From positions 21,154 through 85,153 of the forward strand of contig JBBTSI010000003.1 of NCBI GenBank assembly GCA_038064735.1: DNA of 64,000 bases, given 5' to 3'. The notes below the pieces were generated by a model. The model was not told the origin of the DNA. It ran no database searches and saw nothing but the letters and a program-made list of their open reading frames with translations. Made by a program: the position numbers and the translations under genes. Below, piece by piece: positions 10,276 through 56,647 of the stretch. Source of the stretch: Patescibacteria group bacterium. Its GTDB lineage: Bacteria > Patescibacteriota > Minisyncoccia > Phycocordibacterales > WO2-35-19. Position 1 is the first letter of the stretch; each line of letters begins with the position of its first letter.

Positions 10276-11544
10276 ATGAAAAATAAGGTGAAAATTAAAA
10301 AAACCCAGCCTTCGCATAAAGCTACGGCGGGCAAAGATAGGGTATTTTTGGACTATGCATCTGTGACGCCGGTTGATTTGGGTGTAGAAAAAGAAATGCA
10401 GAGGGTTCAAAAGCAATTTTGGGCAAATCCTTCATCCTTGCACAAGGAAGGGGAAGAGGCTAAAAATATTTTGGAAGAATCTAGGACAAAAATTGCCCGA
10501 ATTTTGCATTGCCGTAGTAGTGAAATATTTTTTACAAGCGGGGGTACCGAATCTTTAAATTTGGCTATTTTGGGTGTGGTCAAAAGAAGCCAAAGGGCGT
10601 CTTTACCGCATATAATAGTTTCAACAATAGAACATCCGGCTGTTTTGGAACCAATAAAAAATTTACTTAAAGAAAAAGTGATTGAAGTTTCTTTTATTAC
10701 ACCAAACGAGAAGGGAATAATTAGCCCAGAATCTGTCAAAAAAGAAATGAAAGAAAATACTGTTTTGGTCGTTGTTCAGCATGCTAATAATGAAATAGGA
10801 ACTATCCAACCAATAAGAGAAATTTCAAAAGCTATTAAAAATTTCAAAGAATCAGAAATGGCAAAATTGCAAAAAGCTGCGGATAAATCCCGCTTTTTGA
10901 ATTTTGCCATTTCTGATTCTCAGACTGCTCCATATCTGTTGGTAGATGCGTGTCAGAGTGTTTTGTATGAAGATGTTTCGTTAGAAAGACTCGGCGCTGA
11001 TATCTTAGTTTTGGATGGTATTAAAATGTATGGGCCAAGAGGTGTTGGCGTTTTAGCGGTAAAGCATGGCACCAAAATTTCTCCCATAACTTTTGGCGGG
11101 GGACAGGAGAATGGTTTCAGGCCGGGAACAGAAAATGTGATTGGAGTAGCTGGTTTCGCCAAAGCTTTGGAAATTTCTGTCAAAATGATGGAGAAAGAAT
11201 CAAAACGACTTTTGCAATTATGCGATTATGCTATTTCTAAAATTTTGGAAATACCAAATTCTTCTTTGAATGGCAATAAAGAAAATAGATTACCTAATAA
11301 TATTAATGTTTGTTTTTCCAATCAAGATTCGGAATTTTTGGTTATCAAATTGGATACTCTGGGTTTTGCTGTTTCGGCCGCTTCAGCTTGTCATACTTTG
11401 TCACTTGAAAACGGCTCTTATGTTATTGAGTCTATCGGCAAACCGGAATGTTCAGGTTCTTCTTTGCGTATCACTCTAGGTAGAGACACCAAAAAATCAG
11501 ATTTAGATAAATTTATAGTTGCTCTTAAAAAAATACTTTGTTAA
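10276..11544 (+). CDS. cysteine desulfurase (class V aminotransferase, IscS/NifS family) carrying an in-frame palindromic insertion
   Basis: FLDYASVTPVD, TSGGTESLNLAI, IEHPAVLEP and the active-site region SAASACHT; 25-aa insert KESEMAKLQKAADKSRFLNFAISDS encoded by the palindrome at 10849..10919. Confidence 0.85.
   Translation: MKNKVKIKKTQPSHKATAGKDRVFLDYASVTPVDLGVEKEMQRVQKQFWANPSSLHKEGEEAKNILEESRTKIARILHCRSSEIFFTSGGTESLNLAILGVVKRSQRASLPHIIVSTIEHPAVLEPIKNLLKEKVIEVSFITPNEKGIISPESVKKEMKENTVLVVVQHANNEIGTIQPIREISKAIKNFKESEMAKLQKAADKSRFLNFAISDSQTAPYLLVDACQSVLYEDVSLERLGADILVLDGIKMYGPRGVGVLAVKHGTKISPITFGGGQENGFRPGTENVIGVAGFAKALEISVKMMEKESKRLLQLCDYAISKILEIPNSSLNGNKENRLPNNINVCFSNQDSEFLVIKLDTLGFAVSAASACHTLSLENGSYVIESIGKPECSGSSLRITLGRDTKKSDLDKFIVALKKILC
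10849..10919. repeat. 71-nt perfect palindromic element (family 1) inserted in-frame in the cysteine desulfurase gene
   Basis: gaatcagaaatggcaaaattgcaaaaagc / 14-nt loop / gctttttgaattttgccatttctgattc; second copy at 47326..47396. Confidence 0.85.
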
Positions 11545-26197: not shown

Positions 26198-28393
26198 CTA
26201 TACTTTTCTTTTTCTGCCAAAGGTGCGTTTTTTCTTTTCTTCTGCCAAAATTTCTAGAGCGCGGGGCAGCTCAATAGTATAAACATCATCTGTTTTGAGC
26301 GAGCGGAAATCTTTTTGGTGGACTATGTAAGGGCCAAATCTGCCGATATTGGCACTTATCATTTCTCCAGTTATCGGGTGTTTACCTAATTCTCTAGGTA
26401 GACTCAAATATTTGATGGCTTCAGTCAGAGTGACTTCGCTTGGATTTTTTTCTTTTGGAATACTGGAACGGCGTGGTTTTTTATTTTTTTCATCTTTTAC
26501 ACCGAGTTGGACATAAGGGCCAAACCGGCCATCCATTACGAAGACTGGAAGTCCACTAGTCGGGTCTTCACCTATCGCTTCCGCCTCTTTGATTTCGGAA
26601 CCGTCAATATTTCTCATGCCTTTGCAATTTGGGAATTTTTCGCAACTCAAAAATTTACCTCCTCGTCCGAGTTTTATGATCATGCTTGCACCGCAAACTG
26701 GGCATTTGAGTTTGGGATCGGCGTCCCCAAGAGTTGTTAGTTTGGCGGTCTTTTCTTTTTCTTTGACGTCTTTGGAAAAGGGTTTGTAAAATTCCCTCAG
26801 TGTTGGCTCATACTCTCTTTCTCCATTTGCGATTTGGTCCAACTCATCTTCCATTTCGGCGGTGAAAGTGTCGCTGATATAATCTTTAAAATTATCTTCC
26901 AAAAAAGTGGAAACCACATCGCCGGTGTCAGTTGGTTTGAGAGTCCGGCCATCTTTTTCTACATAACCTCTTTCTATAATAGTGCCAATAATGGAAGCAT
27001 AAGTAGAAGGCCTACCGATACCACGTTTTTCCAACTCTTTGATGAGGCCAGCTTCGCTGTAGCGGTTTGGTGGTTCAGTTTGTTTTTCTTCATTATTTAA
27101 ATTAAGAAGAGAGAGTGGCTCTGAGGCTTTGACCCTGGGTAAAATAACATCTTCACCTTTAGCTGCTGGGTCTGCCAAAAGCCAACCTTCAGATATAACT
27201 CTTGAACCAGTAGCAGAAAAATTTGGAATGTTGCCAACGTCGGACATCGGCAAAATTTTGGTGATTATTTTGGTACGCATCATGAGAGCATCTTGCATCT
27301 GGCTAGCGATAGCTTTTTGCCAAATCAATCTATACAATTCTTTTTGATCGTCAGTGGTACCGCAATTTTCTTTATCAAAATGAGTTGGGCGGATAGCTTC
27401 ATGAGCTTCTTGAGCGTTTTTGGATTTGGTTTTATAAGTTCGAAATTGATGCAATGTGTTGCCATATTTTTTCTCCACCACACCTTTTATCTGCTCCAAA
27501 GCTACCTGAGCCATATTCAAACTATCAGTACGCATATAAGTGATGTGACCAGCTTCATAAAGTTTTTGGGCGGTCATCATGGTACGCTTCGGTGAAAAGC
27601 CTAAGCGAGTCGAAGCTGATTGCTGGAGAGTTGAAGTGGTGAAAGGTGGTTTGGGTGCTCTCTTGACTTCAGTCTCCGTCACATCTTTCACTGTCCAATG
27701 GGCATCTTTGGCGATGTTGTAAATCTCATCAGCTTCTTTTTTGGTTTTCGGTTCTTCTTCGCAAAAAGCTGTAAATTTTTCTTTTTTGCCTGTTTCCAAT
27801 TCTGCGGAAATTACGAAATAAGTCTCTGGCTTAAAAGCTCTGATCTCTCTTTCTTTTTCCATAATGATACGCAAAGCGGGGGACTGGACTCTACCAGCAG
27901 AAAGTCCGTATCGCACTTTTTTCCAAATCAAACCAGAGAGATCATAACCTACCAGTCTATCCAAAACCCTTCTGGCCTCTTGAGCCTTTCTCAAATTTTG
28001 GTCTATCTTGCGCGGATGCTTTAGCGCTTCTTCAATAGCCTCTTTGGTAATCTCATGATAAGTCACTCTTTTAATATCTTTATTTTTTTTCTTTCCGTCA
28101 GAAATTAATTCAGCCAAGTGCCAAGCGATAGCCTCACCTTCACGGTCGGGGTCGGTAGCGAGCAGTATTTCATCAGCTTTCTCTGCTAACTTTTTTATAT
28201 CAGCTACGACATGTTCTTTGCCTTTGGAAATTTCATAATGCGGAATAAAACCACCTTCTATATCAATGGCTTTTTTGTTGGATTTTGGCAAGTCGCGCAC
28301 ATGCCCGACGCTTGCCACCACTTCATATGCATCGCCAATATATTTTCCGATGGTCTTGGCTTTGGCTGGTGATTCTACAATTAATAATTTCAT
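26198..28393 (-). CDS. topA: DNA topoisomerase I
   Basis: Toprim N-terminus LLIVESPAKAKTI, DPDREGEAIAWH, topo IA core, C-terminal zinc ribbon CPVCGASM...CEKFPNC. Confidence 0.9.
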   Translation of the reverse strand: MKLLIVESPAKAKTIGKYIGDAYEVVASVGHVRDLPKSNKKAIDIEGGFIPHYEISKGKEHVVADIKKLAEKADEILLATDPDREGEAIAWHLAELISDGKKKNKDIKRVTYHEITKEAIEEALKHPRKIDQNLRKAQEARRVLDRLVGYDLSGLIWKKVRYGLSAGRVQSPALRIIMEKEREIRAFKPETYFVISAELETGKKEKFTAFCEEEPKTKKEADEIYNIAKDAHWTVKDVTETEVKRAPKPPFTTSTLQQSASTRLGFSPKRTMMTAQKLYEAGHITYMRTDSLNMAQVALEQIKGVVEKKYGNTLHQFRTYKTKSKNAQEAHEAIRPTHFDKENCGTTDDQKELYRLIWQKAIASQMQDALMMRTKIITKILPMSDVGNIPNFSATGSRVISEGWLLADPAAKGEDVILPRVKASEPLSLLNLNNEEKQTEPPNRYSEAGLIKELEKRGIGRPSTYASIIGTIIERGYVEKDGRTLKPTDTGDVVSTFLEDNFKDYISDTFTAEMEDELDQIANGEREYEPTLREFYKPFSKDVKEKEKTAKLTTLGDADPKLKCPVCGASMIIKLGRGGKFLSCEKFPNCKGMRNIDGSEIKEAEAIGEDPTSGLPVFVMDGRFGPYVQLGVKDEKNKKPRRSSIPKEKNPSEVTLTEAIKYLSLPRELGKHPITGEMISANIGRFGPYIVHQKDFRSLKTDDVYTIELPRALEILAEEKKKRTFGRKRKV

Positions 28394-28456
28394 CCCGTTA
28401 GAAGTTTATATAATTAATAATTTGTTATTTTTGATTCCCGTGACTTCTAACGGGAT
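28392..28456. repeat. inverted-repeat element ATCCCGTTAGAAGT...ACTTCTAACGGGAT abutting the topA start codon
   Basis: 14-bp perfect arms separated by 37 nt; the arm ends at the topA ATG; related copies at 29625..29694 and 42006..42085. Confidence 0.7.
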
Positions 28457-29613: not shown

Positions 29614-29624
29614 TTTTGTTGTTG

Positions 29625-29694
29625 TTAACCCCGTTAGAAGTCAGATGCAAAGCATCTGCTGAAGTTAATAACTTCAGACTTCTAACGGGGTTAA
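29625..29694. repeat. inverted-repeat element TTAACCCCGTTAGAAGTC...GACTTCTAACGGGGTTAA between divergent dprA and serS
   Basis: 18-bp perfect arms enclosing two internal hairpins (agatgc/gcatct and ctgaagtt/aacttcag). Confidence 0.7.
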
Positions 29695-29726
29695 CATTTA
29701 TTTTAACAAATGGTAGAATAAAAGAC

Positions 29727-37900: not shown

Positions 37901-38554
37901 TTAATCAAAAGTGTCAAAGATGCCCTTTGACACTATCCTTTTGTAAAGTTTTGTGTTTTCATTTATAAAATTTTTTGTGTTGCCAAATATTTCAGTTAAG
38001 AATTGTTTATGAATTATTTTATTTTTTCTATTGCTTATAAAATCAACATAGCTACTCCATTTGTATTTTTCAGGTTTATCGATAAAACCATCTTTAATTG
38101 GATTCATATGTATATAAGAAGAAATCAGCATAAGTTGCGGATTTGTTTCGATTTGGACAGATTTAAATTGATCTTGGAAAACATGGCCAACTCTTTTGTA
38201 TTTAAGATTTATGTATTTTGCAAAACTGGTAAATACTCTGGACATAAGTTTTGAAATTGATTCATCACCGCACTGCTCTATCAATAGGTGAATATGGTTT
38301 GGCATTAAACAAAAAGCATGAAGTTTAAAATTTTCTGGTTTTAAACTAGTGATCCTTATCCTTGATTTAGGGGATTTGGTTATTTCGCATTCATTCAAAT
38401 CTTTAATATCAAATCCAAGACCTAATCCTAATCTAAAAAGAAAAGTTCTGTAATCTTGTTCATCTCTGAATATTATTTCTTTATTATCACCACGATTATA
38501 GATGTGGTGAATAGAATCTTTGGTGAAATTTTTATAATCTCTATTTCTTCCCAT
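37901..38554 (-). CDS. Y1 HUH transposase, IS200/RAYT-like
   Basis: HUH motif CLMPNHIHLLIE and catalytic-Tyr region SSYIHMNPIKDG; start at ATG 38554 (MGRNRD) with TGTGGTATAAT 7 nt upstream. Confidence 0.7.
   Translation of the reverse strand: MGRNRDYKNFTKDSIHHIYNRGDNKEIIFRDEQDYRTFLFRLGLGLGFDIKDLNECEITKSPKSRIRITSLKPENFKLHAFCLMPNHIHLLIEQCGDESISKLMSRVFTSFAKYINLKYKRVGHVFQDQFKSVQIETNPQLMLISSYIHMNPIKDGFIDKPEKYKWSSYVDFISNRKNKIIHKQFLTEIFGNTKNFINENTKLYKRIVSKGIFDTFD
37911..37933. repeat. 23-nt perfect palindrome GTGTCAAAGATGCCCTTTGACAC (REP-like), copy a
   Basis: Within the 3' codons of the transposase gene and 35 nt upstream of the hydrogenase small-subunit ATG. Confidence 0.8.
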
Positions 38555-38577
38555 ATTAAAATTATACCACAAGTAAA

Positions 38578-38600
38578 ATGTCAAAGGGCATCTTTGACAT
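38578..38600. repeat. 23-nt perfect palindrome ATGTCAAAGGGCATCTTTGACAT (REP-like), copy b, centre inverted
   Basis: Between the hypothetical gene stop and the transposase start. Confidence 0.8.
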
Positions 38601-39672: not shown

Positions 39673-39695
39673 ATGTCAAAGATGCCCTTTGACAT
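39673..39695. repeat. 23-nt perfect palindrome ATGTCAAAGATGCCCTTTGACAT (REP-like), copy c
   Basis: 38 nt upstream of the 38612..39634 gene start. Confidence 0.8.
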
Positions 39696-39746: not shown

Positions 39747-41219
39747 ATGTCGGAGAATTTAAATAATGAAATATTTACCATAGGCATCGGTGGGGCGGCT
39801 GGAGAGGGTGTCAAATATGTAGGCAATAACATCGGATTACTTTTACGTGATTTGGGTTTTCAAATTTATCTATCATTGGATTATCCATCACTCATTCGGG
39901 GTGGGCACAATTTCGTCAGATTGAGTGCTAGTGTGGATAAGATTTGGAATGATCACGCCAAGTTGGATATTTTGATATGTTTAAATGAAAAAACTGCGGA
40001 AATTCATAAAAGTGAGCTCAAAGAAGGTGCATGGGTACTCGAGGGTTTAAATAATGAAGAAATTTTGGGTAAAGTCAGAGAATTTTTGAGTACCAAAGGA
40101 TTAGCCGACTTCGCTTCAGGCTCCGTCGCGCCGAAGGGTGAACTAATTGATGGTAATACCGCTTTTGCCAAAGGTTTGCAGATGGCAGGTTTGGATTTTT
40201 ATTTTGCTTATCCTATGACACCATCGACTTCTATTTTGCATTATCTCGCCAGCAAGCAAACTAAAGAAGGACTTAAGGTTATTCAGCCAGAAAATGAAAT
40301 CGCTGTCATCAATATGGCGCTCGGTAGTGTTTATACTGGCAAAAGAGTGGCAGTAGGGACGGCGACTGGCGGTTTTGCTTTGATGCAGGAAGCTTTTAGT
40401 TTCAGTGGTATGGCTGAACTTCCACTTGTGTTAGCTGTGGTGCAAAGGCAAGGGCCAGCGACTGGTGTACCGACGAGAAGTTCCCAATCAGATTTGCGTT
40501 TTGTGATCCATGCTGGTCATGGAGAATTTCCAAGAATTGTTTTAGCACCAGGAGATCCAGAGGAATGTTTTAAAGCAGGAATAGAAGCAATGGATTTAGC
40601 TTGGAAATTTAAATCACCAGTTATTGTTTTGCTTGATAAAGCTTTGTCGGAACACATAATGACTGTGGACATTGAAAGATTGACCCAGCTTTCGCTAAAA
40701 GCTACGGCGGGCGAAGAAAATGCAAATATAATTTTTCCTGGTACTCCAGAAAAGGTAGTAAAAGTTACTAGTTATGAACACGATGAAGAAGGTATCACTG
40801 TTGATAAACCCGAAGATGTTAAGACAGCGATGGATAGGAGGTTTGCTAAGGGAGAGAAGATCAAGGAAGAAATGAATAACAGAGAAACTATCAAAATATA
40901 TGGAGATACGTCAAGCAAAAATACAATTGTGTTTTTTGGTTCTAGCAAGAGTCCGATACTTGAAGCGGCGAAACTTTTAGAAAAAAATATTAAATTGGTT
41001 CAAATTTTGTGGCTTGAACCGTTTGATTCAGAGAAACTTAAGAAAGAATTTGAGGGAATGAATAAAATAATTTGTGTGGAGGCCAATCACAGTGGGCAAT
41101 TAGCAAGTTTAATCAGAGAGAGGACAGGTATTGAAGTTACTGATAAAATTTTGAGATATGATTCATTACCATTTGAACCGGAAGAACTCGCTCTGCAAAT
41201 TAATTCAATTTTAAAATAA
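39747..41219 (+). CDS. korA: 2-oxoacid:ferredoxin oxidoreductase, fused gamma+alpha subunit
   Basis: N-terminal gamma-like GGAAGEGVKYVGNNIG and a POR/KOR alpha core. Confidence 0.8.
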   Translation: MSENLNNEIFTIGIGGAAGEGVKYVGNNIGLLLRDLGFQIYLSLDYPSLIRGGHNFVRLSASVDKIWNDHAKLDILICLNEKTAEIHKSELKEGAWVLEGLNNEEILGKVREFLSTKGLADFASGSVAPKGELIDGNTAFAKGLQMAGLDFYFAYPMTPSTSILHYLASKQTKEGLKVIQPENEIAVINMALGSVYTGKRVAVGTATGGFALMQEAFSFSGMAELPLVLAVVQRQGPATGVPTRSSQSDLRFVIHAGHGEFPRIVLAPGDPEECFKAGIEAMDLAWKFKSPVIVLLDKALSEHIMTVDIERLTQLSLKATAGEENANIIFPGTPEKVVKVTSYEHDEEGITVDKPEDVKTAMDRRFAKGEKIKEEMNNRETIKIYGDTSSKNTIVFFGSSKSPILEAAKLLEKNIKLVQILWLEPFDSEKLKKEFEGMNKIICVEANHSGQLASLIRERTGIEVTDKILRYDSLPFEPEELALQINSILK

Positions 41220-41220
41220 A

Positions 41221-42015
41221 ATGGCAGAATTAAATTTATCTACAAAAGCAAAAATAACATGGTGTCCAGGGTGTCCAAACTCGCAGATTTTGGTGGCTTT
41301 CAGAAAAGCCGTGACTGAGATGGTAGAGAATGGTTCACTCAAGATTGAAAATTTGGTGGCTTTTGCTGGTATTGGATGTCACGGTAAAATTTCTGATTAT
41401 ATAAATGTCAACACTTTCACTTCACTTCACGGCAGACTTATCCCAGCTATGACAGGTAGCAAATGCGCTAATCCAAATCTTAATGTTATAGGTTTTTCTG
41501 GTGATGGTGATTCTTTGGATGAAGGTATAGAGCACCTCATTCATGCTGCTAAAAGGAATTCGGATATAACTTTGTTTATGCATGACAACAGAGTTTTTGC
41601 TTTGACGACCGGCCAGTTTGATGCTCTCAGTCCCAAAGGTTTTAAAGGTAAATCTTCTCCGTTTGGTAGTATTGAAGAACCATTAAATCCACTTTTACTT
41701 TTGCTTTCTGCTGGGGCTACTTTTATTGCTAGGACTTATGCTGGTGATATTGCCGGTACTAAAAAAATAATGCAGGCCGCTATGAACCACAAAGGTTTTG
41801 CTTTTGTCGACATTATCCAACCTTGTATCACTTTTTTTGATACTCGTGATTATTTTAAAGATAAGATTTATTGGATGGATGAAGGTTTACCCAAAAATGA
41901 TTTGAAATTTTCTATAGAAAAAGTTTCTGAAAATCAAAATGAAAAAGTACCTTTAGGAATATTTTATCAAGTCGAAAGATCAACTTTTGAAGAAGAATTA
42001 TATAAATCCCGTTAG
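41221..42015 (+). CDS. korB: 2-oxoacid:ferredoxin oxidoreductase beta subunit (TPP-binding)
   Basis: CPGCPN, GIGCHGK and GDGDSLDEG (TPP/Mg motif). Confidence 0.8.
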   Translation: MAELNLSTKAKITWCPGCPNSQILVAFRKAVTEMVENGSLKIENLVAFAGIGCHGKISDYINVNTFTSLHGRLIPAMTGSKCANPNLNVIGFSGDGDSLDEGIEHLIHAAKRNSDITLFMHDNRVFALTTGQFDALSPKGFKGKSSPFGSIEEPLNPLLLLLSAGATFIARTYAGDIAGTKKIMQAAMNHKGFAFVDIIQPCITFFDTRDYFKDKIYWMDEGLPKNDLKFSIEKVSENQNEKVPLGIFYQVERSTFEEELYKSR

Positions 42016-42085
42016 AAATACCAAATTATGTTCATTATGCAAAAAAATTATTGTCGATTATTAAAAGTTAGATTTCTAACGGGAT
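42006..42085. repeat. inverted-repeat element ATCCCGTTAGAAAT...ATTTCTAACGGGAT between korB and the acd gene
   Basis: 14-bp perfect arms, 52-nt spacer; left arm contains the korB stop codon; right arm ends 7 nt before the next ATG. Confidence 0.7.
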
Positions 42086-42092
42086 AAATAAT

Positions 42093-44147
42093 ATGAATTT
42101 AGAAAATTTTTTTAATCCAAAATCAGTAGCGGTTATTGGTGCTTCATCTGACACTAAAAAAGTGGGTTTTGCTCTAATTTCAAATCTTTTGAAAAATAAT
42201 CCGCCAACTGATGGAAGAAAAATTTTCCCTGTTACTCTCTCAGAAAAAGAAATTTTAGGTATGGAGACTTTCTCTTCTATTTTAAATATTCCAGATCAGG
42301 TTGATTTGGCGATAATAGCTGTAAGAGCTGATATAGTACCCAATATTTTAGTCGAATGTAGTGAAAAACATGTTTCTAATGCAATAATAATTTCTTCTGG
42401 CTTTAAAGAAATGGGGATTAAAGGTAAAGAACTCGAAAACGAAATTTCAAAAATAGCTAAAGAAAAAAATATCACTCTTTTGGGACCAAACTGTCTCGGT
42501 GTTATCGATACGAAAAAAAATTTGAATGCTTCTTTCGGTGGTCGGCAACCGCTTCCAGGTAGTATTGCTTTCTTATCCCAATCCGGTGCGCTCGGTACTG
42601 CTCTTATAGATTGGTCTATAGATGAAGGTATCGGTTTTTCCAAAATCATAAGTTTGGGTAACGAAGCACAGCTTACCGAAATCGATTTTTTGGAATTTTT
42701 AGAAAATGATCCTGAAACTTCTGCAATTTTGATGTATTTGGAAAATATAAATGATGGACCGAAATTTTTGGAAACTGTAAAAAGAATTACCTTGAAGAAG
42801 CCTGTGGTTATAATAAAAGCAGGTATGGGTAATCATGGAAATTTGGCTGTCATGTCTCACACTGGAGCTTTGGCACCGCAACCTGCAGTGTTCATTTCTG
42901 CTTGTCGACAAGCGGGTGCTACTACTGTGTCATCAGTGCGGGGATTTTTTAATATTATTAAAATATTGTCTCAAATAGGATTTAAAAAAGATCCTATTCA
43001 ACATTTGATTATTTTGACAAATGGTGGTGGACCGTCTGTCGTTGCTGCTGATCTTATCGACCGTTCTCGTTCTCTATCTCTCGCAGTTTTTTCTGAAAAT
43101 ATTAAAGAGGAATTGCGCGCTACTTTACCTAAAATGGCTGCTATCGGGAATCCAGTTGATATTATAGGTGACGCTCTTGCAGACCGATATGACAAAGCCC
43201 TCGAAATTTTATGCAAAGCGGAAGATTGTGATGCAATCATGGTGATACTTACTCCTCAAATGATGACAGAAGCAGCAGAGACTGCGAAAGTACTTGCTAA
43301 GTATAAAGATAAAAAAATAATATTTCCGGTTTTTATAGGCGGAGAGGGGATACAAGCTGGACGCAATGAACTCATAAAATCTGGTTTGGTTCACTTTGTT
43401 TTCCCTAGAGATGTTATCGATAGTTTAGATTATTTGGCTCAAAGTTCTCCTAAACGCAAACCCAATTCCGGTCACCATAGCTTTGGACATCATGGTGAAC
43501 TTATGACTTCGGTAAGAAATGGAGAGATGATGGAATTTAAATCAACACTAGAATTACTTTCTCAATACAATATTTCTATTGAAGGCCGATTTTTAACTAG
43601 AAAAGAAGATTTAGGAAATGCTTTAAATTCACTCGGTAGCGGTCCTTATACAATGAAAGCGATTTCCAAAGAAGCGGTTCATAAAACCGAAACAGGAGCA
43701 GTTAAATTAAATATTTTAAGTGTAGATGAAGCCAACTGGATATGGGAAGATATGTGGACGAAAATTCCAAAAGTGGAGGGTATTATTGTTCAGAAAATGG
43801 AAAAAGGTAGGGAAATAATAATCGGTATGAAAAGAGACAACACTTTTGGTCCGACGATACTTTTTGGTTTGGGTGGGATTTTTGCCGAAGCAATAAAGGA
43901 TACAGTGCTACGTGTTGCCCCAATTGGAAAAATTGAGGCTCTAGAAATGATGCAAGAAATAAAGGGTATCAAAATTTTGCAAGGTCTGCGTGGCCAACCA
44001 CCAGTAAACTTTGAAATGCTGGCCGATATTCTCGTAAATCTCTCTAAACTTTCTCTTGATCATCCGGAAATAAAAGAAATTGACTTTAACCCTGTTATGG
44101 CTACTGAAAATTCCGCCATCATTGTGGATGTGAGGATAATGATTTGA
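42093..44147 (+). CDS. acetyl-CoA synthetase (ADP-forming), fused alpha-beta (NDP-forming acyl-CoA synthetase)
   Basis: CoA-binding N-terminus KSVAVIGAS, succinyl-CoA-synthetase-like flavodoxin domain, ATP-grasp C-terminal half. Confidence 0.8.
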   Translation: MNLENFFNPKSVAVIGASSDTKKVGFALISNLLKNNPPTDGRKIFPVTLSEKEILGMETFSSILNIPDQVDLAIIAVRADIVPNILVECSEKHVSNAIIISSGFKEMGIKGKELENEISKIAKEKNITLLGPNCLGVIDTKKNLNASFGGRQPLPGSIAFLSQSGALGTALIDWSIDEGIGFSKIISLGNEAQLTEIDFLEFLENDPETSAILMYLENINDGPKFLETVKRITLKKPVVIIKAGMGNHGNLAVMSHTGALAPQPAVFISACRQAGATTVSSVRGFFNIIKILSQIGFKKDPIQHLIILTNGGGPSVVAADLIDRSRSLSLAVFSENIKEELRATLPKMAAIGNPVDIIGDALADRYDKALEILCKAEDCDAIMVILTPQMMTEAAETAKVLAKYKDKKIIFPVFIGGEGIQAGRNELIKSGLVHFVFPRDVIDSLDYLAQSSPKRKPNSGHHSFGHHGELMTSVRNGEMMEFKSTLELLSQYNISIEGRFLTRKEDLGNALNSLGSGPYTMKAISKEAVHKTETGAVKLNILSVDEANWIWEDMWTKIPKVEGIIVQKMEKGREIIIGMKRDNTFGPTILFGLGGIFAEAIKDTVLRVAPIGKIEALEMMQEIKGIKILQGLRGQPPVNFEMLADILVNLSKLSLDHPEIKEIDFNPVMATENSAIIVDVRIMI

Positions 44148-45417
44148 GGTCGAAGTTGGGGTCACTAAGCTCTGATTCATGGCCGGAGACTTTAAAATTT
44201 GATTCTATAAGTTTATTTATGGTAGCCATATCTTTGGAACGGTTAATGAAAGTGGCGCCAATGATTTCATCTTTTTCATCAACGATAATGCGAGCGAAAG
44301 AATTTATTTCCGGAGAACCACGTTTAATTATTTTATATTCCGGTTTGACACGCACATCTCCAGACATGGCAATATTTAAACCAAAACCAATCGCAGTATA
44401 AAAAGAAACCATTTTGAATGGTTTGCGATTGCCGAGCATATTATTTGCTACAGTGCGGCCTTGCATTTGAGCGTTGACCCAGTTGCCGAGCTGGACTTTT
44501 TCACCAAGTATGAGGTCAGTGAATTCGGCGACGTCGCCAGCAGTATAAATATCTGGGATATTAGTCTCTAAATATTCATTGGCCAAAATACCTTTGTTGG
44601 TTTCTATACCAGCTTCTTTGATCCAATCTAGGTTGCAAATGAGTCCTATGCCGATGATTGCCAGCTGACAGTCTATTTTTGCTTGCCCCGCCGTAGCTTC
44701 ATGCGAAGGCTGGGTGCCTTTTACAATTACTCCTTCTATTCTTTCATTGCCCAAAATTTCAGAAACTTCTGCTTCGCGTAAAATTTTTACTCCCTCTTTC
44801 TCTAAAGCATTTTCAATCATTTTGGCGGACTCAATATCTAAAAGCGGATACCAAAAATATGGTTCGCGCATCACCATAGTCACTTCTAAACCTGCCAATT
44901 TCATCATCTCGCACATTTCAAAACCGACGAAACCAGAACCTACTGCGATAGCTTGTTTGGAAGTTTTGATATTTTCTATAAGTTCGTTGACTTGGCTTAG
45001 ATCGCGGACATAACAGATGCCTTTTTTATCTGCTCCAGTGATAGGCCACTGTCTAGCTTCTCCACCAGTGGCCAGAAGCAGTTTTTCATATTGCAAAATT
45101 TTGCCTGTCCCAACCGAAGCGTCGGGGCCGCCTGAAAGTGTGACGGACTTTGATTTTGTATCAAGTTTGGTTGCGAGTACTCCTTCAATAAAATCAATCT
45201 TATTTTCTGTGTACCACTCTTTTTGTCTAAGCCAAACACTATCAAAAGGAATTTTACCTAAAAAGAAATTGGGTTTGGAGAGCATAATACGCGAATAATA
45301 ACGCGGTTCGTCAGAGACGATAGCGATACTACCTTCTTTGTCAGTTTGACGCAAAGTTTCAGCTGTCGTAGTACCAGCTGCCCCTCCACCAATGATTAAA
45401 TATTTGTATGGTTGCAT
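44119..45417 (-). CDS. FAD-dependent pyridine nucleotide-disulfide oxidoreductase (ferredoxin/rubredoxin-NAD(P)+ reductase or NADH oxidase-like)
   Basis: IIGGGAAG FAD and AVGSGFVGFE NAD(P) dinucleotide-binding motifs. Confidence 0.7.
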   Translation of the reverse strand: MQPYKYLIIGGGAAGTTTAETLRQTDKEGSIAIVSDEPRYYSRIMLSKPNFFLGKIPFDSVWLRQKEWYTENKIDFIEGVLATKLDTKSKSVTLSGGPDASVGTGKILQYEKLLLATGGEARQWPITGADKKGICYVRDLSQVNELIENIKTSKQAIAVGSGFVGFEMCEMMKLAGLEVTMVMREPYFWYPLLDIESAKMIENALEKEGVKILREAEVSEILGNERIEGVIVKGTQPSHEATAGQAKIDCQLAIIGIGLICNLDWIKEAGIETNKGILANEYLETNIPDIYTAGDVAEFTDLILGEKVQLGNWVNAQMQGRTVANNMLGNRKPFKMVSFYTAIGFGLNIAMSGDVRVKPEYKIIKRGSPEINSFARIIVDEKDEIIGATFINRSKDMATINKLIESNFKVSGHESELSDPNFDLKSLSSHPQ

Positions 45418-45425
45418 TTTAACCT

Positions 45426-45461
45426 CACCCCCAGCCCCTCTCCTAGAAGCAGGAGAGGGGA
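45426..45461 (-). promoter_or_regulatory. intercistronic hairpin between the ferredoxin and oxidoreductase genes
   Basis: 10-bp perfect stem cccctctcct/aggagagggg, loop agaagc; no T-run; an RBS-like GGGGTGAGG follows before the ATG. Confidence 0.35.
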
Positions 45462-45479: not shown

Positions 45480-45749
45480 CTACTTAGGGAATACTTGCTT
45501 GCCTTCTTTATCAAACAAAAGTATAGCTTTGGTAGGGCAGGATTCTGCTGACATAAGTAGAGTAGCGTCATCGGCTGCGTTGGCTCCGGCTCCTGCACTT
45601 ACAACCACTGCTTTATTTTCATTATCAAGTTCCCAAGTCTCTCCTGAGACGGCGATGCAGGAAGCGGCGCCGATGCAGAGGTCGCGGTCAACCACTATCT
45701 TGCTAATATTGGAACCTTCTTTGTTACGAGCGTATTCTTGTGTTGCCAT
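45480..45749 (-). CDS. ferredoxin (single [4Fe-4S]/[3Fe-4S] cluster type)
   Basis: CIGAASCIAV...ESCP cysteine pattern. Confidence 0.7.
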   Translation of the reverse strand: MATQEYARNKEGSNISKIVVDRDLCIGAASCIAVSGETWELDNENKAVVVSAGAGANAADDATLLMSAESCPTKAILLFDKEGKQVFPK

Positions 45750-45758
45750 TTTTTTAAT

Positions 45759-45980
45759 TTAATTTTCAATAATAATATTTTTAATTTCGGGAACTTCTTC
45801 TTTGATCATACTGCCGAGCATACCGTCATAAGTCTCATTGGCGAGTTCGCAACCGACGCATGCTCCGGTCACTTTAATTTTAACAATTCCGTCAGTAATA
45901 TCCAAGAGCGTCACATCCCCACCATGCATTTGTATATAAGGTCGTATTTTCTCAATTATTTTTTCAATCTTTTCTTGCAT
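45759..45980 (-). CDS. NifU-like C-terminal domain (Nfu) Fe-S carrier protein
   Basis: HGGDVTLLDITDGIVKIKVTGACVGC matches the Nfu CxxC motif region. Confidence 0.7.
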   Translation of the reverse strand: MQEKIEKIIEKIRPYIQMHGGDVTLLDITDGIVKIKVTGACVGCELANETYDGMLGSMIKEEVPEIKNIIIEN

Positions 45981-45988
45981 TTTATTTA

Positions 45989-46687
45989 TTATATACCAGG
46001 ACCAAAATATTTTTCACGATAGAAGCGGATGAGTTGTTCGACTTTGGGGACGAGGTCGGGGTGGCCGACGGCGACTTTGGTGCGTTTTTGGACATCGACT
46101 AAAGTGACAGCGCCTTCGAGGACGGCTTCTTCAATATCAGCTTCAGTGGTTTTGGTATCTGGGTCTAAAATTTGTTGACCATCGGTGACGATTCTTTTAA
46201 GCTGGCCGGTTTTTTTGAACCAATCATTGAGTGCGGCGCGGAGCGCTTTGTCGCCGAGGACCGAGCAATGGATTTTCCTATCTGGCAGACTGCCCAATCT
46301 TTTTATAATATCTTGCGGTCTGATTTGCAAAGCTTTGTCGATCTTCATACCACCCCCGCCCGAACGACTGTTCAGTCGGGCAGGTTTCTCGCCAATCATC
46401 ACAGAAAGCATCGAAGTGGTGGCGATAGCCGAAGCACAACCGAAAGTGCGCCATTTCATTTCTTTTATTCTATCCGTTTTCTTATCAATTTTAAGCCAAA
46501 TGCGCATCACATCTCCGCAAGCCGGTGAGCCGACGATACCCGAAGCATCATATTTGGCCTCTTTCGGATCTTCTAGAAGCAAGTTTCTGGGTTTGAAGAA
46601 GTGCTCTTTCACTTCTTTGGTGTAAACCCAAGAATTGCCAGTAAACTTATTAACCACGTCAGGTTTATTTTTTTTCATATAATTCAA
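45989..46687 (-). CDS. IscU/NifU-N-like Fe-S cluster scaffold with N- and C-terminal extensions
   Basis: Three scaffold cysteines: SPACGDV, RTFGCASAIA, HCSVLGD. Confidence 0.65.
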   Translation of the reverse strand: MNYMKKNKPDVVNKFTGNSWVYTKEVKEHFFKPRNLLLEDPKEAKYDASGIVGSPACGDVMRIWLKIDKKTDRIKEMKWRTFGCASAIATTSMLSVMIGEKPARLNSRSGGGGMKIDKALQIRPQDIIKRLGSLPDRKIHCSVLGDKALRAALNDWFKKTGQLKRIVTDGQQILDPDTKTTEADIEEAVLEGAVTLVDVQKRTKVAVGHPDLVPKVEQLIRFYREKYFGPGI

Positions 46688-47915
46688 AAGGGGAAATTTG
46701 TCTTAACCTCTTCACAACTTCCGGCAAATGCTTTAGCACATATTTAACATCTTCAGATGTGCTGTATTTACCCAAAGTGAAGCGCAGACTACCATGAATA
46801 TATTCGTATGGGTTGCCAAGTGCAGAAAGAATATAAGATGGCTCCAAACTTTGGGAATTGCAGGCACTACCGGTGGAGACCATTATACCAAGCTCGTCCA
46901 GATATAAAAGCAGAGCCTCGCCTTCCACATCCAAAATAGAAATATTGAGGAAATTTGGTAAGCGTTTGGCTGGGTGGCCATTCAAAATAACTTTGGGAAT
47001 AATTTTAAAAATACCTTTTTCTAAAGTGTCGCGAAGTTTTTTGATACGAGCGGTTTCTGTTTTTCTTTTTTTAGTGACTAACTCTAGTGCCTTGACGAAG
47101 CCAACAATGCCAGCGACATTTTCGGTACCACTACGCAATCTTTGCTGACCACCACCATAAATAATAGGGGAAATTTGGGTGCCCTTTTTCACATACAAAC
47201 CGCCGACACCTTTGGGTCCGTAAATTTTGTGAGAAGAAATAGTCATTAAATCTGCGCCAAGTTTCTCTACATCCAAATCCAAAAATTTTGCTGATTGGCT
47301 TGCGTCGGTATGAAGGTGGGGGAAAGAATCTGAAAAAGCAAAATTGCAAAAAGCTGCGGATAAATCCCGCTTTTTGAATTTTGCTTTTTCAGATTCTTTG
47401 AATTCCTTAATTATTTTCGAAATCTCTGCAATCGGTTGAATGGTGCCAGTCTCACTATCAGCCATAGTGATGGAAATTAAAATAGTTTTTGCATCCAATT
47501 CTTTTTTTAATACTTCCAAATCTACTAAGCCGTTTTTCAAAACCGGCAACCTTACAATTTTAAAATTATCCTTTTCTAAAGCATCGCAAGTTTTCAAAAC
47601 CGCTTTGTGTTCAATTTGGGTAGTTATGATTTTGCCCCCTTTTTCTTTATTAGCTTTGGCAACGCCAAGTATAGCCAGATTATCCGCTTCAGTAGCCGAA
47701 CCAGTAAATACAAATTCATCGGGTCGGCAATTTAAAATTTTGGCGATGGTTTTAGTTGATTTAGTGATAGCAAATTTAGATTTTTGGCCCAATCTATACA
47801 GACTCCCAGGATTACCAAAATCTTCCTTAAAATAAGGGAGCATCGCAGAGACGACCTGTTTGTCTACAGGAGTAGTCGCGGCATAATCAAAATACCTCTG
47901 CTTTTTCATGAGCAT
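46665..47915 (-). CDS. cysteine desulfurase (IscS/NifS family) carrying an in-frame palindromic insertion
   Basis: FDYAATTPVD, TGSATEADNLAI, SSHKIYGPKGVG (PLP Lys), STGSACNS (catalytic Cys); insert KESEKAKFKKRDLSAAFCNFAFSDS encoded by the palindrome at 47326..47396. Confidence 0.85.
   Translation of the reverse strand: MLMKKQRYFDYAATTPVDKQVVSAMLPYFKEDFGNPGSLYRLGQKSKFAITKSTKTIAKILNCRPDEFVFTGSATEADNLAILGVAKANKEKGGKIITTQIEHKAVLKTCDALEKDNFKIVRLPVLKNGLVDLEVLKKELDAKTILISITMADSETGTIQPIAEISKIIKEFKESEKAKFKKRDLSAAFCNFAFSDSFPHLHTDASQSAKFLDLDVEKLGADLMTISSHKIYGPKGVGGLYVKKGTQISPIIYGGGQQRLRSGTENVAGIVGFVKALELVTKKRKTETARIKKLRDTLEKGIFKIIPKVILNGHPAKRLPNFLNISILDVEGEALLLYLDELGIMVSTGSACNSQSLEPSYILSALGNPYEYIHGSLRFTLGKYSTSEDVKYVLKHLPEVVKRLRQISPFELYEKK
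47326..47396. repeat. 71-nt perfect palindromic element (family 1), second copy, in-frame in the second cysteine desulfurase
   Basis: Central 44 nt identical to the copy at 10849..10919; outer stem differs at 3 positions per arm, all compensatory. Confidence 0.85.
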
Positions 47916-48851: not shown

Positions 48852-49158
48852 CTCCGCGGGTTGGATTCGAACCAACGACCAATCGCTTACATAGAATCTC
48901 CTATTACTAGAAGTATGGACTATATCATCCCCATGTCTTTTGATTTAGGGGCGAGGGGCTTCGAACGTGAAATAAACACGTCCTACTCCATAAAGGATAG
49001 TCTCTACACCTTCCCTGACTTTTGTCTGGGCTTGGCTCGGGATTGCCCGCTTTTTAAAGCTTGGGTTTCCCCGAATTCACCTCGTTTTTCATCCAAAATT
49101 TCTTTTGGAAGCTGCATTATAAATACAGGCGACTGCGCTACCGCTGCGCCACCGCGGA
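48852..49158 (-). tRNA. tRNA-Asn(GUU) interrupted by a 235-nt group I intron in the anticodon loop
   Basis: Exons: 5' UCCGCGGUGGCGCAGCGGUAGCGCAGUCGCCUGU (49158..49125), 3' UAAGCGAUUGGUCGUUGGUUCGAAUCCAACCCGCGGAG (48889..48852). Spliced anticodon loop CUGUUAA, U1-A72 and G73 as in E. coli tRNA-Asn. Confidence 0.7.
48890..49124 (-). mobile_element. group I intron, subgroup IC3-like (Azoarcus/Anabaena tRNA-intron type)
   Basis: P7 strands AGACUA / UAGUC; near-identical matches to the Azoarcus core: CGAGCCAAGC, GAAGGUGUAGAGACUA, GUGAAUUCGGGGAAACC. 5' splice site after U (U.G with IGS GCAG); last intron nt G. Confidence 0.75.
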
Positions 49159-49167
49159 GCTTAATGA

Positions 49168-49461
49168 TTATTTATTTTTCAAGTTACAAATCTCTTTCGG
49201 GATTTTTGTGATCTCATCATGGACTTCCATATGACAATTCGCACAAAGCAACACACATTTGTCTATTTCTTTGCGAAGCCTTTCCCACGAACGTGTTAAA
49301 CCCTTAGAAGACATATCGAAGTCTTTGTTTTTAGGATTTACATGGTGGAAACTCAATGCTCGTGAGCATTTATTGTAACCACATATCGCGCATTTGTTGC
49401 CTTTATAAGATCTAGCCATTTCACGCAGTTTTATTCTTCTGCGTTTAACAGCCATAACCAT
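49168..49461 (-). CDS. HNH endonuclease
   Basis: CAICGY...HHVNP...CANCHMEVH (HNH zinc-finger nuclease motif); stop codon 9 nt upstream of the intron-bearing tRNA-Asn; start uncertain (49461 or upstream 49548). Confidence 0.65.
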   Translation of the reverse strand: MVMAVKRRRIKLREMARSYKGNKCAICGYNKCSRALSFHHVNPKNKDFDMSSKGLTRSWERLRKEIDKCVLLCANCHMEVHDEITKIPKEICNLKNK

Positions 49462-49611
49462 ATACTTTGCTCGATCGGCATAAGTCCTTGTCTCTTTTCT
49501 TATTTTGGTATACACAACATAAGTATACCACATAAATTTAAAGAACATTGCTATTGTAGCAAAAATCTATACGGTTGCAATAACGAAAATATATTTGGTA
49601 TACTTATATGT

Positions 49612-55963: not shown

Positions 55964-56647
55964 ATGGACCAAAATAAAGAATTGCATCATGCGAGCGTTG
56001 TTATAGGAGATGATTGCCGTAGTTTTGTTTTGGAAATTTTGATCAATAGATTGAATTTTAATACAAAAGCCAATCCAGATTTTTTGCTTATAGAAAATCA
56101 AAGTTTTGGCATTGATGAAGTACGTAATCTCGAAAGATGGGCCATAGGTAAACCACTTGTCGGTGATGTCAAAGCTTCTTTAATAATAGTTAATTCCATC
56201 ACTTTTGAAGCTCAAAACGCTTTACTCAAAATTTTAGAAGAACCACCTTTGGGAACATATTTTTTTATAAATCTTCAAAGTCTGGGTGGATTACTTCCAA
56301 CTTTTCTTTCGAGAGTTAGAATTTTGTTTTTGAGGTCAGACCTTGAAAAAAAGTCCCAAAGGTCTGACCTCGGGGACGGCAATGCAAAAAAATTTTTACT
56401 TTCCCAAATTAAAGAAAAATTTTCTATGATACGTTCTCTTTCAAAAAAAGAAGACCCTACTTCGCTAAAGCTTCGAGGGGCAAGTAAAAATGAAATGAAA
56501 GAATTAATTAAAAATTTAGAGGAGATTGCTTACAAAAATAATTTTAAAGCTCAAGACTTAAAAAACATATTAATTGCTAAAACCTTCGCTTCTGTTAGGG
56601 GTTCTTCTCCCAAAATGCTTCTGGAGTGGCTTTCATGTGTGTTATAA
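55964..56647 (+). CDS. holB: DNA polymerase III delta-prime-like subunit (degenerate AAA+)
   Basis: AQNALLKILEEPP signature box; no intact Walker A. Confidence 0.6.
   Translation: MDQNKELHHASVVIGDDCRSFVLEILINRLNFNTKANPDFLLIENQSFGIDEVRNLERWAIGKPLVGDVKASLIIVNSITFEAQNALLKILEEPPLGTYFFINLQSLGGLLPTFLSRVRILFLRSDLEKKSQRSDLGDGNAKKFLLSQIKEKFSMIRSLSKKEDPTSLKLRGASKNEMKELIKNLEEIAYKNNFKAQDLKNILIAKTFASVRGSSPKMLLEWLSCVL

Follow-up and report, generated by a model that had tools for sequence, protein, structure and literature searches.

The iscS gene of a Patescibacteria metagenome-assembled genome (MAG) from groundwater (Hainich H43) contains, inside its reading frame, a hairpin-forming palindrome of 75-77 bp that is called here family-1, and a second copy of this element sits at the homologous loop of a paralogous cysteine desulfurase gene. 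Both genes lie in the 64-kb stretch of contig JBBTSI010000003.1 that was analysed (the window). The element is likely a selfish "coding palindrome" like those of Rickettsia and is probably not a regulatory device; its arms vary in a compensated way, the iscS copy has its inner part flipped with respect to the gene, and the loop that houses it is a hot spot for insertions among relatives.

Anatomy and reading frame of the two copies

Copy 2, carried by iscS (copy 1 is that of the paralog), has two arms of 29 nt (47323-47351 and 47371-47399) that are 93% complementary and stand 19 nt apart, and its parts are listed in Table 1; the family-1 motif is GCGGATAAATCCCGC. An in-frame palindrome in iscS had been reported in an earlier note on this DNA (the original prediction), and its presence is confirmed, with limits at 47323-47399 where 47326-47396 had been given (3 nt on either side). 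It had also been described as a second copy of an element at 10849-10919, and this holds true: copies 1 and 2 show 92% identity over 75 nt, the central 47 nt being the same in both, and there are three differences per arm, each of them compensated in the opposite arm. The central 31-mer (GCAAAAAGCTGCGGATAAATCCCGCTTTTTG) has exactly two occurrences in the window and none in 100 shuffles. Folded as RNA, either strand reaches -42 to -45 kcal/mol (z = -7.9 to -8.9), with copy 2 at -42 kcal/mol and a z of about -8.9, and none of 200 shuffles was as good.

Both copies have the same orientation on the + strand and their host genes are inverted relative to each other, so that the inner part runs in opposite directions with respect to the two genes. 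The element had been taken as its own reverse complement apart from the 14-nt loop; its arms are indeed self-complementary, but the asymmetric part also includes an unpaired G, and the stretch in which orientation can be distinguished is 47346-47376 (31 nt). A chromosomal inversion between the copies was considered on paper and rejected, because the genes would come out chimeric and the loop would keep its orientation within the gene.

The gene 46665-47915(-) translates copy 2 as KESEKAKFKKRDLSAAFCNFAFSDS, on the opposite strand and exactly as the original prediction had quoted it, and the paralog 10276-11544(+) translates copy 1 as KESEMAKLQKAADKSRFLNFAISDS; peptides that read-through would give are KAKFKKRDLSAAFCNFAFSDSFPHLH for IscS and MAKLQKAADKSRFLNFAISDSQTAPY for the paralog. 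The flanking peptides encoded by the arms are alike in both orientations (KESE.AK ... NFA.SDS) and the centre alone differs, being LQKAADKSRFL in one and FKKRDLSAAFC in the other. Five copies were obtained as DNA (the two of the window and those of loci L001, L088 and L089 from other genomes), and all of them are in frame and devoid of stop codons, suggesting that the element is translated. Both used frames are open, as expected of an element said to tolerate translation in both orientations, although about 10% of random palindromes of the same composition are likewise open in both, so that two open frames are weak evidence of design.

Host genes and structural position of the insert

The host gene of copy 2 matches Aminotran_5 (Pfam E = 1e-70) and IscS structures in the PDB (E = 1e-104), and it has the group I motifs, with the pyridoxal phosphate (PLP) lysine in SSHKIYGPKG, the catalytic cysteine in TGSACNS, and HTDASQ; its invariant residues are H103, D204, Q207, H229, K230 and C352. 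The isc-nfu-fdx operon proposed for it was recovered, with Aminotran_5, NifU_N, NifU and 4Fe-4S ferredoxin genes in this order and then a Pyr_redox_2 reductase gene (Table 1). The paralog, which adjoins DUF4446 and IF-2 genes in synteny with L088, shares 43% of its residues and about 52% of its DNA with iscS.

Table 1. Coordinates of the genes and element parts in the window
Feature	Position	Strand	Remarks
IscS-type (group I) cysteine desulfurase, 416 aa	46665-47915	-	Heads the operon; carries copy 2
Paralogous cysteine desulfurase, 422 aa	10276-11544	+	Carries copy 1 at the homologous loop
NifU_N scaffold	45989-46687	-	Pfam match
NifU C-terminal domain	45759-45980	-	Pfam match
4Fe-4S ferredoxin	45480-45749	-	Pfam match
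Pyr_redox_2 reductase	44119-45417	-	Last gene of the iscS / NifU_N / NifU / ferredoxin / reductase operon
Family-1 element, copy 2	47323-47399		In frame in iscS, read on the - strand as KESEKAKFKKRDLSAAFCNFAFSDSF
Family-1 element, copy 1	10846-10920		In frame in the paralogous cysteine desulfurase
Copy 2, inner 31-nt segment	47346-47376		Unpaired G, 8-bp inner stem and 14-nt loop
Copy 2, left arm (outer and inner)	47323-47345		23-nt outer arms are AAAGAATCTGAAAAAGCAAAATT and its complement
Copy 2, unpaired G	47346
Copy 2, 8-bp inner stem	47347-47354 paired with 47369-47376		CAAAAAGC with GCTTTTTG
Copy 2, 14-nt loop	47355-47368		TGCGGATAAATCCC
Copy 2, right arm	47377-47399
Y1_Tnp (IS200-like / RAYT-like) transposase gene	37901-38584	-	Candidate hairpin-acting enzyme
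Small tandem genes with a 74-nt segment	94-369, 385-702, 730-1194, 1296-1634

The two copies occupy one homologous codon position, after a helix (...IAEISKIIKEF) and before a strand (...HTDASQ), which in iscS means a helix that ends near residue 169, the element, and then the strand HLHTDASQ. The Aminotran_5 match is broken at the insert in both proteins (at profile position 167 in iscS), and, compared with the solved IscS2 of Archaeoglobus (PDB 4eb5/4r5f), residues 170-200 of the query (31 residues) replace residues 165-169 of the chain (5 residues). In an AlphaFold2 (AF2) model of IscS, with a mean predicted local distance difference test (pLDDT) score of 83.7, the helix is prolonged to residue 183 and residues 184-199 form a low-confidence coil, so the insertion point is predicted to be a fold-compatible surface loop between helix and strand. 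An adaptive role, in which the 25 inserted residues would serve the enzyme as a new and useful surface, for instance an arm for docking partners, is very improbable. The insert is kept in frame in orthologs of both paralogs and its first part is predicted to prolong the helix, in keeping with such a role, but the central peptides of the two orientations differ, residues 184-199 are modelled as low-confidence coil, close relatives differ greatly at the site in both length and sequence, and conservation lies at the nucleotide and not at the peptide level.

Family-1 in other genomes

Copies of family-1 were found in four other metagenomes, all of them at the same site and in frame: in iscS orthologs P0004/L001 (as DNA in L001) and P0008 (as peptide), and in orthologs of the paralog in L088 and L089 (as DNA). 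The central 39 nt are the same in all five DNA copies (four genomes), as are the inner 31 nt, in host genes that are just 72-75% identical in DNA, and identity falls to this background at the edges of the element. Where residues are conserved, their codons agree in 83-90% of cases within the element versus 54-57% outside. Copies differ from one another at 5-7 positions in every pair, within or between genomes. Two related candidates were rejected on these comparisons: concerted evolution within the genome, because the copies of the window are no closer mutually than to those of other genomes, and a recent recombination tract including the flanks, because identity is at background right from the element edges.

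The outer arms vary but remain complementary (GAATC/GATTC versus GAGTC/GACTC; the variants CAGAAATGG/CCATTTCTG versus CTGAAAAAG/CTTTTTCAG; CTCGGGGAA/TTCCCCGAG in L001). Ten of the 31 stem pairs have changed on both sides and 97.3% of the cells of the comparison pair, with just one G-U cell and four unpaired cells, a level that none of 500 shuffles reached. With respect to the gene, the inner 31 nt are exactly reverse-complemented solely in the iscS copy of the window (compared with L001, L088, L089 and copy 1). The pattern is indistinguishable from that of an independent insertion in the opposite orientation; since the iscS orthologs P0004/L001 and P0008 have the other orientation, the iscS copy of the window is best read as having a flipped spacer. 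L001 has a complete family-1 copy beside a degenerate half-copy.

An assembly artefact (a collapsed or chimeric repeat), the objection raised in the original prediction, is scarcely credible. The source is a MAG, where an assembler might in principle be confused by two 75-nt repeats of nearly the same sequence, and no sign of this was found; against it, an independent ENA assembly (L002, 21,245 nt, 99.86% identical) has the same element, both proteins are on record from three contigs, both frames are intact with flanks that align to solved structures, and the element recurs in frame at the same site in the four other metagenomes.

A local origin without any mobile element is possible but unlikely. 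It would start with a fold-back or template-switch duplication, in one of the genes, of its native lysine-rich sequence coding for the helix, followed by ectopic gene conversion between the paralogs, seeded by the arms. The left arm encodes a native-like extension of the helix (KESEKAK, to be compared with RASKKIK in the hairpin-free ortholog P0009), no family-1 copies were found elsewhere in the window or by exact scans, the outer arms differ with their context while keeping complementarity, and the two copies of the window share the + strand orientation that direct-register conversion between palindromes would give. However, at about 52% DNA identity the paralogs have no long identical stretch in the flanks for conversion, copies within the genome are no closer than copies between genomes, and the nested arrangement in L001 suggests repeated arrival. 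This explanation also leaves without cause the sharp-edged invariant core across genomes, and other hairpin families occur at several unrelated places.

The invariant core could instead be a functional cis-element, a double-stranded operator or an RNA or DNA hairpin that couples both desulfurase genes to one regulator or to mRNA processing, which is quite improbable. The 39-47 nt that do not vary against the background of the host genes, and the codon identities given above, are what such an element would show; family-1 was found solely in genes of iron-sulfur (Fe-S) cluster assembly, and the inner hairpin and the T-run after it match a terminator-like consensus on the sense strand of iscS (GCGGGATTTATCCGC followed by AGCTTTTTGC, a GC-rich stem and a T-run in the middle of the open reading frame (ORF)). 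Yet close orthologs have no hairpin, or an unrelated sequence, at the site, terminator-like matches in the region are no commoner than in shuffles (3 sites versus 2.7 expected), and no further copy of the motif was found near the promoters of the window. The flipped copy shows a complementary loop in its mRNA, so a role that depends on the RNA sequence is impossible for both genes at once, although this does not argue against a role of the double-stranded DNA. A scan of the element with Rfam 15 gave only generic long-hairpin (miRNA precursor) matches of at most 33 bits, with gathering scores of 47-249, and a known RNA family was rejected on this basis. Hairpin-dependent RNA processing or pausing within iscS, suggested as a thing to test in the original prediction, found no support either, in view of the orthologs with baseline loops and no hairpin, the decay of older inserts and the lack of an Rfam match.

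The loop as an insertion hot spot

The spacing between the QPI and HTD motifs was used as a measure of loop length. It is 14 residues in cysteine desulfurases of many other phyla, for the most part distant homologs that served as controls (among the matches listed), and 19-22 residues in seven baseline Paceibacteria loci read as DNA, which have no hairpin (z of about 0). All nine loci read as DNA with a spacing of 32-63 residues contain hairpins, with z from -2.8 to -10.6 (those of L088 and L089 were scored by arm scan), and the shorter inserts of L084 and L086 are low-complexity direct repeats with no hairpin. Loops of baseline length are common in both paralog families, and in alignments of 120 orthologs of each paralog about half have extra sequence at this loop. 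Many of these inserts are unrelated, several insert families are common to both paralogs, and recurrent peptides such as PPQPLPxGEGRRGG and ELRIKNxELSKK...HDSYFIxHNS are of types typical of translated palindromes. Older inserts have decayed, with better folding of the antisense than of the mRNA strand. The loop of the element is the main indel site, though two more loops carry such peptides, a second homologous one (at residue 92 of iscS and 107 of the paralog) and, at residue 350 of the paralog, a third; the insert family QGSPLKNFAPKGDPL is present at all three.

Several other hairpins were observed at or near these loci. A GC-rich hairpin (CCCCTCTCCT-N6-AGGAGAGGGG) at 45430-45460, in the spacer between ferredoxin and reductase genes, is kept in the orthologous spacer L083:5596-5627, and similar GC-rich hairpins lie in frame in the iscS of L083 and would account for the PLPxGEGRRG-type peptides of other orthologs. 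The Y1_Tnp gene of Table 1 is flanked by three perfect GTCAAAGATGCCCTTTGAC hairpins (37913-37931, 38580-38598 and 39675-39693), one of them inverted, an arrangement like that of repetitive extragenic palindromic (REP) sequences and REP-associated tyrosine transposases (RAYT); this motif has four matches in the window and none at family-1. At 10589-10607, a REP-like hairpin with 3 mismatches in 19 to the RAYT-flanking motif is read in frame in the paralog as KRSQRASLP, at the second indel hot spot. In L087:3256-3312, an inverted doublet of a motif like the RAYT-flanking one (REPIN-like, with perfect arms of 20 bp) is in frame in iscS as SQRASFGTGAFQRRPLAS, a peptide common among orthologs.

Proposed template switching and the probable fate of a tolerated insert

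The explanation we lean towards, with modest confidence, is a coding palindrome of selfish or neutral nature that template switching during replication has reshaped. It proposes that a permissive surface loop in a cysteine desulfurase of the IscS type received, in frame, a hairpin-forming DNA of 75-77 bp, which would be translated as a dispensable, probably disordered extension. Such an insert could survive if its length is a multiple of three, the used frame is free of stops and the loop tolerates extra residues. Template switching between the arms would then copy a change in one arm to the other, giving compensatory pairs, could extend the arms into flanking native sequence, and could invert the spacer with no alteration of length or frame, as may have happened with the flipped inner 31 nt of the window iscS; since spacer inversion keeps length and frame, the gene survives if the flipped segment is stop-free. 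In family-1 the arm differences are mirrored, and the spacer is reverse-complemented with arms and length kept, which are the two traces that template switching between inverted-repeat arms is known to leave. Inversion of spacers and homogenization and extension of arms by template switching have been documented in coding genes (PMC8604942, PMC8794818), and template switching has been proposed for other coding palindromes (PMC6649704). The route into both paralogs may have been insertion of a mobile hairpin or ectopic conversion.

A selfish or neutral status is favoured because older inserts decay and fold better as antisense than as mRNA, because close orthologs do without a hairpin, and because the same genome has other in-frame short repeats in unrelated genes. 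Several observations weigh against it. A dispersed selfish element should leave other copies, and none was found outside cysteine desulfurase genes: there are no family-1 remnants elsewhere in the window, and an exact scan of 185,579 species genomes, of JGI metagenomes and of viral contigs for the core AAGCTNCGGATAAATCCCGCTT gave no match, which shows rarity although divergent copies would escape it. The core is invariant and sharp-edged amid hosts of 72-75% identity, and arm conversion alone does not slow divergence, so that this conservation could mean a recent, oddly site-specific spread or selection on the nucleotides. Neither a target-site duplication nor a terminal signature was found in the flanks of the five copies. 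Moreover, cysteine desulfurase genes hold most of the in-gene hairpins of the loci read, loci that were chosen around these genes, and their share exceeds what simple tolerance predicts. An arm-gap-arm pattern had no match in JGI metagenomes, and a protein query of 75 aa, composed of the element's three open translations, gave one candidate and no match, with a word index ill-suited to such a query.

One way to accommodate the sharp edges is a homing hairpin, a palindrome mobilised in trans (e.g., by a Y1/RAYT-type transposase like that of 37901-38584) that would repeatedly target one site in the desulfurase loop. We regard it as rather unlikely; if true, it would explain the sharp-edged invariant core, the same codon position in paralogs and genomes, and the nested copy of L001, and it would mean that Patescibacteria own REPIN-like and other hairpin families that build protein length variation in frame.

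Comparison with known systems

The closest likeness is with the Rickettsia palindromic elements (RPE), described in PMC10969869 (after Ogata et al. 2000, 2002) as hairpin-forming repeats that lie in frame in protein-coding genes at fold-compatible positions, where they are read as additional peptide, and in PMC6649704 as losing repeat identity with time. Family-1 shares with them a stable hairpin palindrome, the in-frame placement, the fold-compatible position and a symbiont-like host of reduced genome. RPEs are of about 100-150 bp and have dozens of copies in unrelated genes and spacers, whereas family-1 has 75-77 bp, two copies in 64 kb and one homologous loop, none being found elsewhere, in a different phylum and in both orientations at one site. 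Family-1 would work like an RPE but probably stands outside that family, being about half as long, low-copy, restricted to one site and of an apparently unrelated sequence.

In coding genes, short inverted repeats altered by template switching (Abraham and Hazkani-Covo 2021, PMC8604942; Monttinen and Loytynoja 2022, PMC8794818) likewise include exact spacer inversions with unchanged arms, several changes compensated at once, stem extension and the ensuing amino-acid replacements. The coding spacer inversions reported there concern spacers of a few bases in native repeats, whereas in family-1 there are 31 distinguishable nt in an inserted repeat. The coding palindromes of Nematomorpha mitochondria (PMC6649704) are also long, near-perfect inverted repeats in translated genes, perhaps parasitic and maintained by conversion or template switching, but both of their arms encode conserved parts of the protein, whereas family-1 is an addition to the protein within a variable loop.

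REPs, by definition, lie outside genes and have a high copy number. The REP/REPIN and RAYT system resembles family-1 in its short hairpins and inverted doublets, and the window has a Y1_Tnp gene with perfect flanking hairpins; family-1, in contrast, is intragenic, was seen in two copies and has a core unrelated to the RAYT-flanking hairpins. Intragenic MITEs (transposable elements of the miniature inverted-repeat type; ERIC, Correia, QMITE; PMC10969869) are small non-autonomous repeats in which in-frame fusions are possible, but family-1 is one whole palindrome without the signature of terminal inverted repeats (TIR) and target-site duplication, and no related insertion sequence (IS) was seen. 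Translational bypass elements (T4 gene 60; the mitochondrial byps of Magnusiomyces, cited in PMC6649704) are also hairpin-forming inserts in coding sequence, which break the reading frame and over which the ribosome passes; in the five copies of family-1, unlike these, the used frame is open in both orientations.

Other repeats and mobile features

Further repeats were recorded in the window and its relatives. In the holB-like DNA_pol3_delta2 gene 55964-56647(+), a 40-nt palindrome (GAGGTCAGACCTT...AAGGTCTGACCTC) at 56332-56371 is read in frame as RSDLEKKSQRSDL; its arms recur between the ferredoxin and reductase genes of another genome, in the intergenic spacer L087:5321-5365, other genomes have peptides of a similar kind (PKSQ[KR]SD[LF]) in a loop of the paralogous desulfurase, and a scan of viral contigs for this type of hairpin gave no match. 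A non-palindromic repeat of about 35 nt (ACCCAGCCTTCGCATAAAGCTACGGCGGGC) occurs at 10310-10332(+), 40690-40712(+) and 44686-44708(-), each time in the sense direction and in frame within a different, unrelated gene, and is read there as TQPSHKATAGK, TQLSLKATAGE and TQPSHEATAGQ; by chance no such repeat would be expected. Three long, mostly intergenic hairpins (28392-28456, 29623-29696 and 41982-42109) share the motif CCCGTTAGAA / TTCTAACGGG, and a coding segment of 74 nt is present at 229-1561 in four copies of 68-81% identity, within a row of small genes in tandem (Table 1).

An apparent tRNA gene at about 48853-49165(-), recognised by eye from its acceptor-stem halves and T arm and called neither by ARAGORN nor by the Rfam tRNA model, contains a group I intron that splits it (RF00028, 67 bits, 48897-49134), and an HNH endonuclease ORF (49168-49548(-)) lies directly upstream. 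In L085:5148-6986, a NifU_N scaffold gene has a LAGLIDADG_3 match (homing endonuclease or intein-like) according to a precomputed Pfam list.

Significance

A literature search found no description of coding palindromes in Patescibacteria and, to our knowledge, protein-coding palindromes had been described as a peculiarity of Rickettsia. The same kind of element is now seen in Patescibacteria, another lineage of reduced genomes, inside an essential enzyme of Fe-S cluster assembly. Further features are added to those previously described, since one loop has been colonised repeatedly by different hairpin families in two paralogs, and short repeats related to RAYT-flanking hairpins also occur in frame. 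The spacer, if flipped in place, offers a clean view of template switching in a coding region. Such inserts split domain matches and may be mistaken for regulatory RNAs or assembly errors, and they bear on how bacteria with small genomes gain variation in protein length.

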